Shown here piece after piece: positions 1 through 6,588 of a DNA stretch of 6,588 bases. The translations under genes and the position numbers were made by a program. Source of the DNA: a virus. The first letter of the stretch is position 1. Each line of letters opens with the position of its first letter. The stretch covers positions 1-6,588 of the IMG/VR virus record IMGVR_UViG_3300020030_000300; one strand, 5' to 3'. The notes beneath the pieces were generated by a model. The model saw only the letters and a list, made by a program, of their open reading frames with translations, had not been told where the DNA came from and did not search any database.

Positions 1-121
1 CTTGCGTGTTTCCGAATAATAGGAGATGGAAATGCGGGCGGAAATGGACAGGTCCGTATTCACCCGCAGCGTAGAAATGTATCTTTTCATTGCAACCGAG
101 TCTATTTAAGTTTATACGTAA
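1..121. repeat. Terminal direct repeat, copy 1. It is the assembly overlap of a circular 6,467-nt genome.
   Basis: Bases 1-121 (cttgcgtgtttccgaataatagg...tttatacgtaa) recur base for base at 6468-6588, exactly at the two window ends. The Rep reading frame passes through the join without interruption. Confidence 0.95.
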
Positions 122-697
122 TCTTTTTACATAATTTTGACAATCGTAATAGTTGAGTATAGGAAGTACAGCCATATCATCAGGTACATCAAATGGCGTC
201 TCAGGGGTCGTTTTCGATACAAGACGAAGTAAATCAGCAGGCACAGCAGTAGAAGTAAATTCAATGGGTTCTTTCCGCTTAGTCTCACGATTAAAAGGAA
301 TAGTTCCGTTAACTTGCTTGCAGAAAATCGTTTGATATTCCGAGGAGAACGCGGGACGCTGAGCCACAGCAGCACGCAGAGGCATGTATTTAAATTCAGT
401 ATCAGAAGAATAACGCAGCCCATCATTAGAATACACAATCTCGCCCGAAATCATTTCCTGAGTAGTCAAGGAAACGAGAGGCATGTGTTCATTGTCATAA
501 GTTAATGTCACGAAATAACAATATTTCCACTTAGATGCGGATTTTGCAATGCGAATAGAATTAATAGATGACTGTCGGGAAATGCAATACGCACAATGTC
601 CACAGCCAACAAGAATATCCTCGCCTGTAAAGCGGTTGCGAACAACCATAGGGTTCTCGCAATGAGATGCTTTGTTTATATAATCATCCAACTGCAT
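1..697 (-). CDS. Replication initiator VP4 (HUH rolling-circle endonuclease), 5' part. It covers codons 1-232 and continues across the circular join into 6467..5500.
   Basis: This ORF is absent from the supplied track because it runs off the window edge. Hand translation of the minus strand from the ATG at 697-695 (in-frame TAA upstream at 724-722) gives MQLDDYINKASHCENPMVVRNRFTGEDILVGCGHCAYCISRQ...KYCYFVTLTYDNEH...AAGEYGPVHFRPHFHLLLFGNTQ, with no stop down to base 1. It carries a CxxC pair, FVTLTYD (RCR motif I) and HFH followed by hydrophobic residues (HUH motif II, nt 26-34), as in microvirus Rep proteins. Confidence 0.9.
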   Translation of the reverse strand, partial: MQLDDYINKASHCENPMVVRNRFTGEDILVGCGHCAYCISRQSSINSIRIAKSASKWKYCYFVTLTYDNEHMPLVSLTTQEMISGEIVYSNDGLRYSSDTEFKYMPLRAAVAQRPAFSSEYQTIFCKQVNGTIPFNRETKRKEPIEFTSTAVPADLLRLVSKTTPETPFDVPDDMAVLPILNYYDCQNYVKRLRINLNRLGCNEKIHFYAAGEYGPVHFRPHFHLLLFGNTQ

Positions 698-707
698 ATA
701 AAAATGT

Positions 708-1016
708 TTAACGTTTGTCAATTACTTGATTTCGGTTTCGGTCAGAAAACGAAATATGAAAAAAATTATCATAAACGATAAATTGGTCAAAAGGTTTGAA
801 CTCGCGGAATTCATATACCTTTTCAAGCAAATTATTATACATAGCAGATGTAGGGGGATACGGCTTGAAGTCGATAGCTTCTCCTTTCAAATGCTGAGAA
901 TTGGGCACACCTCCGACTGTCTTGTTGTGTTCGGGAGTCCGAAAGGCAGACGTAATTGTGAAATGGCAATCTGACTGTAGCAAGAATGCCAAAAACTTCA
1001 TAAGATTCTCATTCAT
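708..1016 (-). CDS. Compact zinc D,D- or L,D-peptidase of the M15 family (Peptidase_M15_3 / VanY-like fold). It is a putative peptidoglycan hydrolase (endolysin).
   Basis: The 102-aa ORF contains FTITSAFRTPEHNKTVGGVPNSQHLKGEAIDF followed by FIVYDNFFHISFSDR. This matches the M15 signature (ITSGYR-x-P-x-HN-x-x-VGG-x-x-x-S-x-H-x-x-G-x-A-x-D ... H-[VI]) with H-x6-D plus a distal H as zinc ligands. No signal peptide is evident. Its stop lies 10 nt upstream of the VP4 ATG on the same strand. Confidence 0.85.
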   Translation of the reverse strand: MNENLMKFLAFLLQSDCHFTITSAFRTPEHNKTVGGVPNSQHLKGEAIDFKPYPPTSAMYNNLLEKVYEFREFKPFDQFIVYDNFFHISFSDRNRNQVIDKR

Positions 1017-1018
1017 GA

Positions 1019-1114
1019 CTAGGCAAGATTAGATAGTAATGATGTCAGTGCTGCCACAATAGCGGAAATTACCGCAGTAATCCAATTCGTTTTCTTGTTG
1101 TTTTCTGTACTCAT
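1019..1114 (-). CDS. 31-aa single-pass membrane mini-protein. It is a candidate holin-like or membrane-disrupting partner of the peptidase.
   Basis: This ORF is below the track's size cutoff. Hand translation gives ATG (1114-1112) MSTENNKKTNWITAVISAIVAALTSLLSNLA TAG (1021-1019). It has a polar, Lys-containing N-terminus followed by an uninterrupted hydrophobic stretch of about 20 residues. The stop lies 2 nt before the peptidase ATG (gcc tag tc atg), and this is the first ORF of the minus-strand block. Its size makes coding status uncertain. A competing 30-aa ORF in another frame (ATG at 1121, MPYEYRKQQENELDYCGNFRYCGSTDIITI) has no such features. Confidence 0.45.
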   Translation of the reverse strand: MSTENNKKTNWITAVISAIVAALTSLLSNLA

Positions 1115-1565: not shown

Positions 1566-1841
1566 ATGGAAAAGAACAAAACTTACGAAGTATGGAGAAT
1601 GTTGGCTGAAAAGCCGAGTATGAATGAATGTATCCATTCGGGAAGAATTCGTGACTGCAAAAAATACCTCAGAGCAGTGGAAAGCGCGTATAGAGACCTC
1701 GGGTGGAAACTGATAGTTACGGACAGAACTTTAATAGCTCTGCCTACGATAGATGCGGGAGTAGAGTACATTTACGTTATTACTGAAAATGTATCGGGCG
1801 ATGTGGAATTTAAAATGCAAGGAGGAAATGGACATGTATGA
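1566..1841 (+). CDS. Hypothetical small protein A (91 aa), encoded opposite to all canonical phage genes
   Basis: MEKNKTYEVWRMLAEKPSMNECIHSGRIRDCKKYLRAVESAYRDLGWKLIVTDRTLIALPTIDAGVEYIYVITENVSGDVEFKMQGGNGHV. The composition is balanced between charged and hydrophobic residues, and first codon positions show a strong purine bias (RNY-like). A promoter lies upstream. The competing minus-strand ORFs here have almost no acidic residues and look like antisense artefacts. I do not recognise a family. Confidence 0.7.
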   Translation: MEKNKTYEVWRMLAEKPSMNECIHSGRIRDCKKYLRAVESAYRDLGWKLIVTDRTLIALPTIDAGVEYIYVITENVSGDVEFKMQGGNGHV

Positions 1842-2037
1842 AATTATATATGTTATGAATAGTTTAGAGTTCAACATGGGTGGGTTCAGAAGAATCAGAG
1901 ATGCAAGAGATGTTTTGAAGATGGTCAGAAATGAATACATTCGTGAGGGACAGAGGACTCTACTAGTAGGGAAAGATTGTTTGCATATAGTATCCGAAAA
2001 AAATGGAAATCGGAAATATGTAATCAGAAAAGTGTAA
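1834..2037 (+). CDS. Hypothetical small protein B (67 aa from the ATG at 1834), a possible distant paralog of protein A
   Basis: MYEIIYVMNSLEFNMGGFRRIRDARDVLKMVRNEYIREGQRTLLVGKDCLHIVSEKNGNRKYVIRKV. The ATG at 1834 overlaps the stop of ORF A (ATGTATGA, 8-nt overlap) and lies 8 nt after AGGAGG (1820-1825). Alternative in-frame starts at 1828 and 1789 (the track ORF) would give longer overlaps. It shares RIRD and identically spaced L, V, Y and G residues with ORF A. Confidence 0.65.
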   Translation: MYEIIYVMNSLEFNMGGFRRIRDARDVLKMVRNEYIREGQRTLLVGKDCLHIVSEKNGNRKYVIRKV

Positions 2038-2092: not shown

Positions 2093-3214
2093 TTAATAGC
2101 TCACTGTAGAGTCATAGTATCTTCGACCATGACGGGACGGGGCGTTGAATGAGCCTTGACCGTCATAGGTTGAATAGCTTCGAGAACCTGAACGGTAGAT
2201 ACCGTAACCGCCTATGGCGTTGCCAATACCTGTCGAGAACTGATTAAATCTCTGCATTCGGGCATTGCGGTCGAAATTTTTCATTTCCTTTTCAGTAATG
2301 CGAGTTTTGAAATAGTCTCGCTCATACTTATTCTTATACAATTGATTGAAATTCAGAATGTCAGTACGGGCTTCCTTAGCTGACAGGGAATTTGTTGCAA
2401 TTGTCGAAGAAATGATTGCAGCAGCGGTTTTTTCTGCAATCTCGTTGCTTATATTCTGACCTTTCGCACGGGCGTAGATTTCGGCAGTTTGAGCAATTTC
2501 GCGTGAGGCTTGAGCTTCAGTCAATGCGCCTGTCTTCACCATGTTCACGAGATTCTGAGCCTTAATCGCTAGATTTGCCTGATTGTCAGCATCTATATAC
2601 TTGTTCATGATACCTTGCGCGTCAGCTTGCAAGTTGGTAAGTGTTTCTTGTGCCTGCATGAGCTTCTGTGCATATTGCAGATTAAGAAACTCCTGTTTTT
2701 CCTTGCTTTGGTCAAGTTCTGCCATTTGGTAACCTCTTGACTTATTCCAATAGCCTGATTGACCTATGGCAAAATTCTTGTAATCAACATTACCGCCAAG
2801 CGTATAAGGCAGCCATTCATTCGTAATTTCCTGACCTTTCGCGCCCGCAATTGCCTTGCGGGCGTTTGCAAGATTGGCGAATGCCTGAGTAATGTCCGAA
2901 GCACCTTGGGCAAGGTTTATAGCAGGCTCAACAGTCGGGCCTTGCGAACCTTGCGGGAGGTTAGAAGATTGCCCAATTCCTGAACCGCCATCAAGTGCAT
3001 TATATGGGTTGAAACCTGCCTCTTCCATTCGGGCGCGCCAATTAATAGGCTTATTATACTCGTTCTGCATATTCCACATTTCCAATTGGAAATCGCGGTT
3101 TTTCTTGGCCTCGTTTGCGCCAAACAGACCGCCAAGAAATGACGAGCCAACAGAAGCAATACCATTAACTAGAGCACCCGCAGCGGGTTTCGCGAGAAAA
3201 GCACCGAGTCCCAT
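2093..3214 (-). CDS. Minor capsid / DNA pilot protein VP2 (373 aa)
   Basis: The Gly/Ala-rich hydrophobic N-terminus (MGLGAFLAKPAAGALVNGIASVGSSFLGGLFG) is followed by EMWNMQNEYNKPINWRARMEEAGFNPYNAL. That resembles the conserved N-x-P-x-x-Q/W-x-x-R-x-x-x-AG-[LF]-NP motif I recall from gokusho/alpavirus VP2. A long Q/A/N-rich helical middle follows. It sits immediately after VP3-like with a TAATG stop/start overlap at 3212-3216. Confidence 0.85.
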   Translation of the reverse strand: MGLGAFLAKPAAGALVNGIASVGSSFLGGLFGANEAKKNRDFQLEMWNMQNEYNKPINWRARMEEAGFNPYNALDGGSGIGQSSNLPQGSQGPTVEPAINLAQGASDITQAFANLANARKAIAGAKGQEITNEWLPYTLGGNVDYKNFAIGQSGYWNKSRGYQMAELDQSKEKQEFLNLQYAQKLMQAQETLTNLQADAQGIMNKYIDADNQANLAIKAQNLVNMVKTGALTEAQASREIAQTAEIYARAKGQNISNEIAEKTAAAIISSTIATNSLSAKEARTDILNFNQLYKNKYERDYFKTRITEKEMKNFDRNARMQRFNQFSTGIGNAIGGYGIYRSGSRSYSTYDGQGSFNAPSRHGRRYYDSTVSY

Positions 3215-3690
3215 TATTGAGCAGGAGCAGAAGCGGGCGCAGAGGCTTCTGATTGTTGTTGCTCAGATTCCTGAACAGCCTGTTCATACTGTTGCATAAG
3301 GTCTGCATGTTCATCGCGCAACCAATCCATAACTGCCTGACGTTCTGACATTGTTTGGCAATGACGGGAAATTACCATGTCGAAGCGTTGGTTATCTGTC
3401 AAGCTGTCTTGAATAGTTGATTGGGTTGGGTGCATGCTTGCTAAAAGTTCCTGATATAGGGGGTCTCCGAGTTTTTTACGAGTTTTCTCCTGATGAAGCA
3501 GGAAATAAGTCATGTCGAACTTGCGGAATGCGCCTGACGGGGTTTCTTCAAATGCAATTTGGTCATATGGAGACAGTTGACGCATAGGTTGTGGCTCACT
3601 AGTAACCGCAGTAATATCAGGTACTTCTGATGTCATGTTGTTGAATTTCTCGAATTGTTCGGGGGTTATTCCAAAAAAGCGTTTATTCAT
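3214..3690 (-). CDS. VP3-like protein (158 aa), a putative internal scaffolding protein
   Basis: The ORF sits between VP1 (11-nt gap) and VP2 (1-nt overlap), which is the expected position and size for a microvirus scaffold. It has an acidic, Q/E-rich C-terminal tail (QQYEQAVQESEQQQSEASAPASAPAQ). Function is assigned by synteny and size only, with no diagnostic motif recognised. Confidence 0.7.
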   Translation of the reverse strand: MNKRFFGITPEQFEKFNNMTSEVPDITAVTSEPQPMRQLSPYDQIAFEETPSGAFRKFDMTYFLLHQEKTRKKLGDPLYQELLASMHPTQSTIQDSLTDNQRFDMVISRHCQTMSERQAVMDWLRDEHADLMQQYEQAVQESEQQQSEASAPASAPAQ

Positions 3691-3701
3691 AATTTCTTAT
3701 A

Positions 3702-5489
3702 TTAATACGGTAAACCATCGCGTGAAAGGTTACGAGCTACCTTAATATTAAACTGAGCATTACACAATAACTGGTCTGTATCCACCTTTTCATCAGCCTG
3801 AACGTCAAAAATCGGGTCTAATTGAGAGGGACGAACCTTAAATGACAGGTAATTAAATGCACCTTGGCCACGTTGAGCGGTTAAGATATTCATCCAATTA
3901 ATTGGGGCGACCCAATTCTTAAGAGTTGTCTGAAATGCGCCCGAAATACGGTCAATTCGCGTCTTAAAATCAGGATAGCGCAATGAATAGCCAACAAAAT
4001 AGTCGGACAAATCATTTTCGCCAAGAGCGACAGCAGATGCCGTAAGAGCCGTTAGAGGGACACTTTCTAAACCAAGAGAATCAAATGCAGGTTGCGGGAA
4101 GTCAGAAACAGCAATACGCTGTAATTGAGGGTCTGCACCATCAATGTTATAATCTACCAATGGCACAGCATGGTATATACACATAATGATACAATGTTCA
4201 GCACCTACAGTGTAACGAATTTTTCTAGAACGTCCTGAGCCAACGCCTTTACCTGCAATATTTGCTTGAGAGCCCTCAGTGTCAAGATTTGTATTTACAA
4301 CCTCAGAGATATCTATATTTCCATCGAAACCGCCAATATAATGAGCATGATTACCCATTGAATCATCACCACGGATGCCAAATTGGGCTTTCATTTGGTC
4401 GTTATAATCCTTAGATGAGAATTGTACTACTTCTTTCCAGCGTTGAAGATACTCAGCAGCACGTACAGCAAGAAATGAGATATTACTCTGCAATGATGGG
4501 TTCATTGCATATATAAAGGCATTTTGCGAAACCTGATTATCCACAGTTTCATTATTATGGAAATTCAACTTAGGGTCAAGTAGATTTCCCTGAGGTGAAA
4601 TCGTATCAGAAGATTGTGAATATAATTGAATAGAATTATAAGAGTTTGGGAATGTTTTACTAGTTTGGTATATAGGGTATTTTGTATCATCAGAATACTG
4701 TATCGAAGCAACATCTCCATACTGAGAACTTGGAAGAACACCCATGAAATAATCTTTATTATAGTTCGCATAACGAAGCTTAATCATTTCCTTGTCCAAA
4801 TTAGTATCAAACGCCTGAACTTGCAACATATAATCAGTATTATAAGCATAAGCAAGGTGACGTTCCCATTGAGAATTTGAATAGAAATCAAAATAGATTT
4901 TCTGATAAGCACACAAAGGGAGAACTGAAAGAAATTGGTCAGTTTTTCGAGACTTAAACGCAGTCGGATTTGTAGTAAACCATGAAGTCATACTAGATTC
5001 AGATACATTAGAATCAATGGCACCATAATTCAAGTAATTCAAAAGTTTCTGAGAAGTAGCACGAATAGGGAAACCCGCATCGTCCAAATCAGTGGACTTC
5101 AAATAGTTCGTAAATGTATCCTCTAGAATATCCTGAGAAACATTCGGAACGTCTTCCATTAAATAGGAATTCTGTGATTTATTAATAGCAGAAACAGCAT
5201 AATCTTTCATCTGCGCAAACGCAGTAGGTAGATTACGATTAAGCAGACGCAAGGGTACAGCATAGAAATCATAATACTCACGGATACGAGTGTAAGCAGA
5301 AGTGTTAACAGGACGGGTACGAGTAAACCAATCTTCGGAAATTTCGAAGACGTCATCCGGCATTCCATACTGCCACATCACAGGCAAAAGTTCACCGACC
5401 TTGGCGGTAAACATCTTTTTTTCGGACATGTCGAAACCTGAACGATGAATTGGAATCGACTTCCGGACGAGAGGATTAAAATCTGACAT
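3702..5489 (-). CDS. Major capsid protein VP1 (Microviridae F/VP1 family). It is 595 aa from the ATG at 5489; the maximal ORF starts at 5531 (609 aa).
   Basis: MSDFNPLVRKSIPIHRSGFDMSEKKMFTAKVGELLPVMWQYGMPDDVFEISEDWFTRTRPV...YYDFYAVPLRLL carries the conserved N-terminal capsid pattern (H-R-S-x-F-D-[LM]-S ... G-x-L-x-P ... P-x-D-x-F ... [FY]-x-V-P-x-R-L). The size is typical of Alpavirinae-like VP1 proteins with large insertion loops. I prefer the start at 5489 because homologous N-termini begin about there and it avoids a 32-nt overlap with the VP4 3' end. Confidence 0.93.
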   Translation of the reverse strand: MSDFNPLVRKSIPIHRSGFDMSEKKMFTAKVGELLPVMWQYGMPDDVFEISEDWFTRTRPVNTSAYTRIREYYDFYAVPLRLLNRNLPTAFAQMKDYAVSAINKSQNSYLMEDVPNVSQDILEDTFTNYLKSTDLDDAGFPIRATSQKLLNYLNYGAIDSNVSESSMTSWFTTNPTAFKSRKTDQFLSVLPLCAYQKIYFDFYSNSQWERHLAYAYNTDYMLQVQAFDTNLDKEMIKLRYANYNKDYFMGVLPSSQYGDVASIQYSDDTKYPIYQTSKTFPNSYNSIQLYSQSSDTISPQGNLLDPKLNFHNNETVDNQVSQNAFIYAMNPSLQSNISFLAVRAAEYLQRWKEVVQFSSKDYNDQMKAQFGIRGDDSMGNHAHYIGGFDGNIDISEVVNTNLDTEGSQANIAGKGVGSGRSRKIRYTVGAEHCIIMCIYHAVPLVDYNIDGADPQLQRIAVSDFPQPAFDSLGLESVPLTALTASAVALGENDLSDYFVGYSLRYPDFKTRIDRISGAFQTTLKNWVAPINWMNILTAQRGQGAFNYLSFKVRPSQLDPIFDVQADEKVDTDQLLCNAQFNIKVARNLSRDGLPY

Positions 5490-5499
5490 AGAAATAAAT

Positions 5500-6588
5500 T
5501 TATATGTTAATAAATGCGCCGTTGGCATCATTTAATCGCTTGTGTTTTACAAGCCGACGAGCTTTCACGGCATTATTATTCTTTAATAATCTTTCCAAAT
5601 AGGCATCTTTATAAATGTCTTGCAAATTCAAACCGATATCTTTCGGTAAGAATAAGCTATAATGATTATAGTCTGCATATTCATCCGAAACGGATTCGGC
5701 AAGGGAATATTTTTCTTGAAGAAGTCGCAGCTCACGGGTATCAAGAGCAGCGAAACAACGAGTGTATATTTTCTTTATCTCATGGAATGAGGGGTTATCG
5801 GGTAATTTCCAAAACCGTAGGAATTTGGATACGGTAAGGAATAGCCGATATATACAGCCTAGAGCAATCTCAGGGTTCAAGATTCTACCACCGACATGGA
5901 AACCATTCGGAGAAATCATACGACATTGATTTAGAATAGCATAGTCTTCGTAAATTAAACTATTTTTTGAAGCTATACATTCTAGATATGCACGAGAAAT
6001 CGCAAGAACGGAAACACCTATTTGTTCGGGTTTTCTCTTCTTGGGGAAGAGTTTAAGCCGTTGGCACGCTGTTGCCACAGCTCGAACAAGGAAAGATATT
6101 TCATTAACATCAGTTCTTCGAAGTCCATTGAATTGGGGACATACGGTATTGAGATACGAGCGGGAGGCATTAACGCTAATATGTTTAGAGTTGACGATAA
6201 GGCTTCGTCCATCACAGAGGTAAGAGGCAACCCGCGCAATCTCTTCGTCTGAAGACGAAGCAGGTTCCTGTGCTTCCATATCGAAACGCAACGAAGCGCG
6301 GCTTTTGGGTCGCATAATTTTCGACTGGCGATAAAAGACGGGAAGCATACTATTGGCACTAATATATGACGCAACGTACGATGAAGCGCCTCCTGTGGCA
6401 AGTTGTATATCTGAACGACCGAAAGTCCAACTCTTAGCGTGAGCCTGTCTAACTGTTTCGGAGAATTCTTGCGTGTTTCCGAATAATAGGAGATGGAAAT
6501 GCGGGCGGAAATGGACAGGTCCGTATTCACCCGCAGCGTAGAAATGTATCTTTTCATTGCAACCGAGTCTATTTAAGTTTATACGTAA
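5500..6588 (-). CDS. Replication initiator VP4, 3' part. Bases 6468-6588 duplicate 1-121, and the full gene is 1,665 nt (554 aa plus stop).
   Basis: The frame matches 1-697 once base 1 is joined to 6467 (697 + 968 = 1665, divisible by 3). The listed 282-aa ORF (5500-6348) is only the C-terminal part. The frame stays open upstream to 6588: ...QEFSETVRQAHAKSWTFGRSDIQLATGGASSYVASYISANSMLPVFY... SYVASY contains a Y-x3-Y pair like the catalytic tyrosines of RCR motif III in phiX174 protein A. The stop TAA is at 5502-5500. Confidence 0.9.
   Translation of the reverse strand, partial: LRINLNRLGCNEKIHFYAAGEYGPVHFRPHFHLLLFGNTQEFSETVRQAHAKSWTFGRSDIQLATGGASSYVASYISANSMLPVFYRQSKIMRPKSRASLRFDMEAQEPASSSDEEIARVASYLCDGRSLIVNSKHISVNASRSYLNTVCPQFNGLRRTDVNEISFLVRAVATACQRLKLFPKKRKPEQIGVSVLAISRAYLECIASKNSLIYEDYAILNQCRMISPNGFHVGGRILNPEIALGCIYRLFLTVSKFLRFWKLPDNPSFHEIKKIYTRCFAALDTRELRLLQEKYSLAESVSDEYADYNHYSLFLPKDIGLNLQDIYKDAYLERLLKNNNAVKARRLVKHKRLNDANGAFINI
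6468..6588. repeat. Terminal direct repeat, copy 2 (duplicate of 1-121)
   Basis: Identical 121-mer to 1-121, so this is redundant sequence rather than additional genome. Confidence 0.95.

Follow-up and report, generated by a model that had tools for sequence, protein, structure and literature searches.

Microviruses rank with the commonest phages in the gut of humans and animals, yet no lysis mechanism has been established for those that do not belong to the phiX174 group. phiX174 itself encodes protein E, whose 91 amino acids (aa) inhibit MraY, and phage M encodes LysM, a 37-aa inhibitor of MurJ. In single-stranded RNA (ssRNA) phages, single-gene lysis proteins can be functional at ~25 codons or fewer, whether or not they contain a transmembrane domain (TMD) (PMC7693330). 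M15_3 peptidases have been reported in Alpavirinae and Gokushovirinae, with their horizontal acquisition shown and an endolysin role proposed (Roux et al. 2012, PLoS One 7:e40418; PMC3394797), and peptidases have been described as likely lysis accessory genes of microviruses (Kirchberger 2022, PMC9239249); the lysis genes of microviruses without a peptidase are unidentified in the literature. We analyzed a stretch of 6,588 nucleotides (nt) from IMG/VR record IMGVR_UViG_3300020030_000300 (the window, meaning this whole stretch), in which a 31-codon open reading frame (ORF), here called the mini ORF or mini gene, is followed by a gene for a 102-aa M15 peptidase. The original prediction, made from the sequence alone, had proposed that the two form a two-component lysis module of mini-holin and endolysin at the head of the microviral gene string. 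The coordinates, the sequences and the 2-nt spacing (GCC TAG TC ATG) it gave for both ORFs proved exact, and the pair does come first on the minus strand.

A constrained mini gene upstream of Rep

The mini ORF of the window encodes MSTENNKKTNWITAVISAIVAALTSLLSNLA. Compared with a 90%-identical relative (L214), the window differs at eight nucleotides of the mini ORF, every one a synonymous change, and the ratio of nonsynonymous to synonymous variation (pN/pS) is 0.15 within the window's lineage, where the peptide is almost invariant. The 27-codon form carried by the main group (71 distinct nucleotide versions) exhibited a pN/pS of 0.13 in frame, whereas the other frames gave 1.3 and 5.2; its entropy at codon positions 1, 2 and 3 was 0.21, 0.08 and 0.65, respectively. 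This third-position variation, together with the low pN/pS, rules out a chance ORF, and the same substitution pattern rules out conservation arising from a DNA or RNA element alone. We conclude that the mini ORF is a genuine gene, kept by purifying selection. Furthermore, public gene callers report the 31-aa gene on sister contigs L332-L337, and the family is kept across genomes whose Rep is only 27-39% identical to that of the window. In GenBank, the gene is either absent or entered as a bare 'hypothetical protein' (e.g. in bajarodmic viruses 669 and 1034), and three relatives there carry an unannotated MKSNNIWKIIIGAVSAALGYVLNAIGL, or a near variant, just upstream of the peptidase, with the stop codon overlapping the peptidase ATG.

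Members of the family are 26-35 aa long. The polar N-terminus carries a net charge of mostly +1 to +3 (0 in one member), Lys at two conserved positions, a conserved Asn, and a Trp that opens the hydrophobic stretch; all charges are N-terminal, and the 19-24 residues that reach the C-terminus are uncharged. In the window peptide, 23 uncharged residues form the C-terminal stretch behind a Lys-rich N-terminus, with a transmembrane (TM) helix of ~21 residues, in agreement with the earlier description of a single TM helix behind a short polar N-terminus. By the positive-inside rule, the topology is probably N-in/C-out. One Ile is invariant across the family, with small residues at +1, +2, +5, +6, +8, +12 and +15 from it, and small residues (S/G, A, A/S, T/G, S/N, G/A) make up a conserved face with the spacing i, i+4, i+7, i+11 and i+14. 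Such a heptad-like face would be typical of TM helices that pack tightly, either with each other or with a partner helix.

The mini gene also occurs where there is no peptidase. At least 14 related genomes carry it intact directly upstream of Rep and lack the peptidase gene (L111, L143, L147, L156, L164, L166, L178, L187, L193, L257, L258, L259, L262 and L327; L numbers denote genomes and loci of the comparison set). Four peptidase-less genomes of the main group have their nearest VP1 relatives (72-88% identity) among genomes with the peptidase, which suggests loss or exchange within the clade. Peptides of the window subtype (…KKxNW[IL]TA[VI]ISA[IV]VAALTSLLSNL) were found in bajarodmic viruses 610 and 669, MG945253, L262 and L327, all five with the ORF immediately upstream of Rep and no peptidase, and the window lineage itself (L214, L332-L337) holds both genes. 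A degenerate DNA motif for the window-type peptide matched mostly random sites in large double-stranded DNA (dsDNA) contigs, the real loci being L214, L262 and L327 only. A DNA motif for IGA[VI]SAALGY returned 103 further IMG/VR loci, one of them a random match in a 13-kb contig; the peptidase lies 21 nt downstream of the motif in 93 of the 103, and in nine microvirus contigs with the motif the ORF is intact (ending ...GYILSAIGV) and Rep comes directly after it. The peptidase-less genomes contained no further small membrane protein and no other lysin; the gene complement of L147, for example, is limited to VP1, scaffold, pilot, a 65-aa protein, the mini gene and Rep. The persistence of an intact mini gene without the peptidase indicates that the small protein has a function of its own. 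Placed just upstream of Rep, the mini gene is a hallmark of the whole clade.

The peptidase and its pairing with the mini gene

The original prediction had read an intact M15 zinc-peptidase signature and no signal peptide from the 102-aa ORF, and had suggested a profile search and a structure model as checks; both were run and bear this out. Pfam Peptidase_M15_3 (PF08291) matched with E=2.8e-13 and 50.4 bits against a gathering cut-off of 23.2, residues 13-88 aligning to profile positions 37-107 of 108, and PHROG 894 'endolysin' matched with E=4.7e-19; PF08291 is precomputed on 30/30 close homologues. The protein contains both the SQH-x6-D motif and the distal H of FFHISF. H42, D49 and H87 (H-x6-D plus distal H), as well as S23-x-x-R26, are invariant in alignments of 13 and of 24 sequences, and we predict H42, D49 and H87 to be the zinc ligands, with R26 in the SxxR motif. 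A profile built from 13 microvirus homologues recovered phage T5 L-alanyl-D-glutamate endolysin (2mxz, E=4e-4) as the sole solved relative by sequence, and the H/D motifs of the two align. The AlphaFold2 model (24 sequences) has a LAS fold (pLDDT 91, pTM 0.82). Foldseek against the Protein Data Bank (PDB) placed 1lbu, a Streptomyces zinc DD-peptidase, at the top (E=7e-4), then hedgehog N-domains, LysB4, LdcB and VanY, and the BFVD matches are M15/M15A peptidases, including a 102-aa structural twin. The helix of residues 3-14 lies within the confidently modelled fold and is thus not a signal sequence; no N-terminal signal was found in the protein. The pN/pS of 0.05 in the window's lineage is strongly purifying. 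By profile and model, the peptidase is a bona fide M15 (LAS) domain, with hydrolysis of peptidoglycan peptide bonds as its putative activity.

The domain is not full length, its first ~36 profile positions being replaced by 12 residues, and the 102-aa protein is a shortened variant inside Peptidase_M15_3 rather than a non-member. Among the library representatives, ~100-aa forms are closest to the query, and more distant relatives are mostly 125-160 aa. The suggestion that a minimal M15 domain of ~100 aa would be new does not hold: dozens of GenBank microviruses carry the same ~100-aa protein annotated as 'peptidase' (44-61% identity to coding sequences (CDS) such as UYL88414.1 and XCD03244.1), the BFVD twin has the same length, and Roux et al. 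2012 had described such enzymes. The accompanying caution that the enzyme by itself might not be new was justified. The enzyme, including its ~100-aa form, is already known in microviruses, and the window adds one member. An N-terminally extended version (124 aa, from an upstream TTG or ATG) was considered and rejected, as its frame is stopped in the window, L003 and L005-L007 and its pN/pS is above 1. In Dulem viruses 226, 243 and 238 (L017, L018, L019; locus 2938-3312), a 124-aa peptidase CDS in GenBank overlaps the mini ORF in another frame, and this CDS is probably a mis-annotation that masks the mini gene.

We then quantified the pairing of the two genes. The IMG/VR scan with the peptidase alignment returned 80 loci; for the count of 90 loci used below, two non-microviral loci were removed and four apparent misses were resolved (GTG starts, locus edge). 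The mini ORF adjoins the peptidase in 89/90 microvirus loci, with an ATGA stop/start overlap in 79, and is never interrupted in the peptidase-bearing relatives that carry it, so the short TM ORF that the original prediction had expected upstream of the peptidase in relatives is indeed there. Seventy-six complete genomes were also sampled by VP1 similarity, blind to both genes: 72 contain both, four (the main-group genomes with peptidase-bearing nearest VP1 relatives) the mini gene alone, and none the peptidase alone or neither gene. With no peptidase-only genome in this sample, the dependence is one-way. Of the proposed two-component module, the tight coupling therefore stands, but the partnership is not obligate, as at least 14 genomes lack the peptidase.

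The association extends to microviruses with a full-length M15 gene. Bajarodmic virus 1034 (L103) has a family member 26 nt ahead of the peptidase; in a rabbit microvirus (L110), one lies immediately downstream; and in MG945328 and MG945336, one is overprinted on the 3' end of the peptidase gene. The latter two genomes, otherwise very distant, have in common a 766-nt block of 76% identity that contains both genes, a recombination that Kirchberger 2022 (PMC9239249) described for the peptidase alone. Outside the microviruses, 12 dsDNA-phage and bacterial loci were examined, and no member of the family was found next to their M15 genes; the neighbours there are ordinary multi-TM holins and one spanin-like gene. 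Co-acquisition of mini gene and peptidase from dsDNA phages was rejected on this basis; these 12 loci indicate that the mini gene was not acquired together with the enzyme. One such neighbourhood, in a prophage on a contig of a Bacteroidales metagenome-assembled genome (L096, 3342-4969), is a classical three-gene lysis cassette and encodes in order a 158-aa multi-TM holin-like protein, a 158-aa M15_3 peptidase and a 196-aa N-anchored, coiled-coil, spanin-like protein. We found no description of a TM partner gene beside a microvirus peptidase in the full-text-searchable literature, which leaves subscription-only reviews outside. As far as this literature goes, the conserved TM mini gene, its clade-wide spread, its one-way tie to the peptidase and the joint transfer of the two are undescribed.

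Candidate roles of the peptide

The peptidase alone could never explain lysis, as it lacks a route through the membrane and is missing from many relatives. We tentatively favor a reading, to which we would give slightly less than an even chance, in which the peptide is a membrane-acting lysis effector, holin-like or amurin-like, and the M15 peptidase a coupled accessory endolysin. The peptide would either lesion the cytoplasmic membrane, as a holin does, or block a membrane step of murein synthesis, as amurins such as phiX174 E and phage M LysM do, and in relatives without the peptidase it would suffice alone. In many lineages, a shortened M15 gene of horizontal origin separates the mini gene from Rep, and its translation is coupled to that of the mini ORF by the ATGA overlap or across a gap of 2-13 nt. 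The signal-less, cytoplasmic peptidase would then reach the wall through, or after, the action of the peptide, and this accessory endolysin might speed lysis or free it from host growth. Membrane topology, oligomerization, lysis role and order of events are all inferred here. Hosts must be lysed, the peptidase has no membrane route of its own, and genomes of 5.4-6.5 kb offer no other candidate, so that a peptide acting as lysis effector is the most economical account, which currently makes the mini gene the strongest lysis-gene candidate in these viruses. Its persistence without any lysin favors the amurin-like version, whereas the near-universal pairing with a signal-less murein hydrolase favors a lesion.

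Several observations weigh against this reading. The peptide belongs to no known holin family: the best Pfam match, Phage_holin_3_3, reached 14.8 bits against a cut-off of 28.4 (E=0.033), the best PHROG match, 443 'holin', remained below threshold (E=0.011), and the charged C-terminal tail typical of holins is absent from the peptide. Such sub-threshold matches are at the level expected between any hydrophobic helices, and we reject them as evidence. Nor was homology to known amurins (e.g. Microvir_lysis for phiX174 E) detected in Pfam or PHROGs at E<=0.1. A membrane lesion alone does not free particles of 25-30 nm through the murein, so the holin-like version leaves the peptidase-less genomes unexplained; the amurin-like version alone does not account for the passage of a cytoplasmic peptidase through the membrane ahead of wall failure. 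The ~36 missing N-terminal profile positions make the activity of the shortened peptidase only putative, and Microvirus mar63 (L015) is the sole peptidase-bearing relative without a family member. At 2828-3008 of mar63, overlapping ORFs of 58 aa and 40 aa, the latter amphipathic and cationic (MKRFLYELKRLLPLLKQVYPLIKSLLSACVRYLKNRRKNE), end at the peptidase start; they may be a functional replacement for the mini gene.

Measured against the usual descriptions, the peptide is a small protein with at least one TMD (a single TM helix) beside an endolysin gene, as a holin would be, in 89 of the 90 loci, but it does not occur only together with an endolysin, since 14 related genomes have neither the peptidase nor another lysin. 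It is the sole lysis candidate, and a short TMD protein, as expected of an amurin, in the peptidase-less relatives but not in the window. The identification as a mini-holin was not upheld, as the peptide shows the sequence and architecture of no known holin family. In its strict form, that proposal makes the peptide a dedicated mini-holin that only lets the M15 peptidase through the inner membrane, as one half of an obligate pair; we regard this as improbable. It would account for the adjacency and translational coupling at 89/90 loci, for a cassette that moves as a block between distant genomes, for a peptidase without a signal peptide, and for the holins paired with the peptidase homologues of dsDNA phages. 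It does not account for the at least 14 genomes with an intact, constrained mini gene and no peptidase or other lysin, or for the lack of any peptidase-only genome in the VP1-selected sample, and the missing holin-family homology, the missing charged C-terminal domain and the absence of the family beside M15 genes in the 12 non-microviral loci also speak against it. A non-lytic membrane role is a more serious alternative, though still an unlikely one: the peptide could be a burst modulator like phiX174 K, a superinfection-exclusion protein, or a replication or assembly anchor, and the peptidase would sit next to it because the site permits insertion. phiX174 protein K, a small hydrophobic protein with a non-lytic function, offers a precedent, and the constant position upstream of Rep, with or without the peptidase, and the lack of similarity to known lysis proteins agree with such a role. 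However, in genomes with other gene orders (L110, L330, L331) the family member stays by the peptidase, downstream of it or overprinted, and not by Rep; the two genes have been transferred together and overlap through ATGA in 79 loci; and a non-lytic role would leave hosts that must be lysed with no other candidate gene in genomes of 5.4-6.5 kb.

We also weighed two explanations centered on the enzyme. The peptidase might act at entry, in or on the virion, opening the murein locally for the pilot protein, with the peptide either unrelated or an export helper. The M15A/M15_3 fold does occur in tail and baseplate lysins of dsDNA phages (gp5-like, 'cell wall hydrolase' proteins of 800-1200 aa), and the protein is very small (102 aa). 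We nevertheless judge this quite unlikely, because the gene sits with the non-structural genes (mini ORF, Rep) outside the VP1-scaffold-pilot block, close relatives dispense with it, and its free-standing homologues are annotated and placed as endolysins; to our knowledge, no microvirus virion contains a murein hydrolase. Alternatively, a programmed frameshift or readthrough might fuse the mini ORF, as a signal or anchor, to the peptidase and yield a secreted or signal-arrest-release (SAR)-type endolysin. The peptide resembles a signal peptide (charged n-region, hydrophobic core, small-residue end), and the peptidase is read in the -1 frame with respect to the mini ORF both in the window and in the main group. 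The frame relation varies, however, from -1 in most loci to in-frame behind a stop in L014/L016 and +1 in L103. In L110, L330 and L331 the mini ORF is located downstream of the peptidase, and in 14 genomes it occurs by itself. The stop codon has no slippery heptamer ahead of it, and the peptidase has its own conserved ATG. We rejected such a fusion on the variable frame relation and gene order and on the solitary mini ORFs, and consider it very improbable.

Returning to the peptide as lysis effector, a wider proposal can be formulated, which we hold to be possible rather than probable: that this 26-35-aa TM peptide is the missing lysis protein of Alpavirinae-type gut microviruses, either as the smallest holin or as a new single-gene protein antibiotic against a membrane step of Bacteroidales wall synthesis, with the M15 enzyme as an add-on that is gained, lost and exchanged alongside. 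The mini gene is a concrete and directly testable lysis candidate of ~90 nt. If the peptide is holin-like, it would set a new lower size limit for holins; if amurin-like, it would indicate a step of Bacteroidales wall synthesis that drugs could target. Even if neither holds, the mini gene is a core gene without annotation, which current pipelines miss or replace with a wrongly extended peptidase CDS.

Genome context and comparison with known systems

The window holds the complete circular genome (6,467 nt) of an Alpavirinae-type gut microvirus and has an exact terminal direct repeat of 121 nt (1-121 and 6468-6588). Its gene string reads mini ORF, peptidase, Rep, VP1, 158-aa protein and pilot protein (Table 1), and every recognizable virus gene is on the minus strand, with an antisense ORF pair as the exception. 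The Rep ATG (697) lies 10 nt past the peptidase stop codon. Rep spans the assembly junction, and the ORF list consequently holds its C-terminal 282 aa alone (5500..6348); on sister contigs, a 554-aa product with PF23343 REP_ORF2-G2P directly follows the peptidase.

Table 1 Coordinates of the genes and ORFs of the window.
Feature	Position	Strand	Basis
Mini gene, 31 codons, single-pass membrane peptide	1114..1019	-	ORF, substitution pattern, public gene calls L332-L337
Peptidase gene, 102 codons, shortened Peptidase_M15_3, LAS-fold zinc peptidase	1016..708	-	Pfam, PHROG, AlphaFold2, Foldseek
Rep/VP4 replication initiator, 554 aa from ATG	697..1, across circular junction to 5500	-	ORF reconstruction, circularized genome
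VP1 major capsid protein	5531..3702	-	Pfam Phage_F, PHROG 514
158-aa protein	3690..3214	-	ORF
DNA pilot protein	3214..2093	-	Listed among the recognizable genes
91-aa ORF (84 aa in relatives)	1566-1841	+	No Pfam match
~68-aa ORF	1834-2037	+	Called in L332-L337 except L336

We infer a Bacteroidales host. The Bacteroides-type -7 motif TAnnTTTG was not found upstream of the mini ORF on the minus strand, and a scan of Genome Taxonomy Database (GTDB) genomes for prophage copies gave six weak loci and no microvirus prophage. The whole window had no match in Rfam. The non-coding stretches 1115-1565 and 2038-2092, which flank the antisense genes, likewise showed no Rfam match and no TAnnTTTG motif on the minus strand, and neither a replication origin nor a promoter for the string of mini ORF, peptidase and Rep was located.

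Genes on the complementary strand are highly unusual in Microviridae. The antisense pair of the window lies within a ~440-nt segment (insertion 1599-2036) that is absent from the 90%-identical L214, and is found in the same position in L332-L337, with no 68-aa ORF called in L336. The 84-aa protein has 30 homologue clusters at 60-94% identity, many on microvirus-sized contigs of 6.0-6.6 kb, and the pN/pS of its ORF is 0.30. Paralogy of the two complementary-strand ORFs was rejected, there being no BLASTP similarity between them. Roux 2012 (PMC3394797) reported a single case of a complementary-strand gene, also beside a peptidase. In most lineages, with or without the peptidase, a further small gene (~50-68 aa, e.g. 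MQKFIISLKEKQTGRDV...) precedes the mini ORF (L001/L002 2737-2931; L147 3087-3284; L258 2347-2502; L262 2508-2678; L327 3448-3654); the minus strand of the window showed no such gene, its place being taken by the antisense pair.

Among known systems, the Alpavirinae and Gokushovirinae M15_3 peptidases of Roux et al. 2012 (PMC3394797) are of the same family as the window enzyme, occupy the same place before Rep and have the same ~100-aa form. That study mentioned only 'unknown' neighboring ORFs and did not note the conserved TM mini gene. The holin-endolysin cassettes of dsDNA phages likewise have a small membrane gene abutting the gene of a signal-less murein peptidase, often with a stop/start overlap, and their enzymes are homologous to the window peptidase (T5 endolysin, PDB 2mxz, E=4e-4; L096, 39% identity). 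Unlike the holins of these cassettes, the mini peptide has only 26-35 aa, a single TM helix and no charged C-terminal tail, and it is unrelated to them in sequence; unlike the cassettes, the mini gene persists without an endolysin, and no spanin or disruptin candidate was seen. phiX174 protein K is, like the mini peptide, a small membrane-associated accessory protein of a microvirus, a likeness by analogy only: K is non-essential, is overprinted on genes A and C, has no link to a lysin and shows no similarity to the mini peptide.

The amurins (phiX174 E, LysM and the single-gene lysis (Sgl) proteins of ssRNA phages; PMC7693330) are, like the mini peptide, very short single-TM proteins of phages with tiny single-stranded genomes. 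The mini peptide resembles them further in being the only plausible lysis gene product of the peptidase-less relatives and in its conserved helix face, which would be compatible with docking onto a host membrane enzyme. It differs from them in sequence and in having a slot of its own, with overprinting only in MG945328 and MG945336. Whereas amurin systems have no muralytic enzyme, the mini gene is usually accompanied by one, and its conservation across a very wide clade contrasts with the rapid turnover of Sgl genes.

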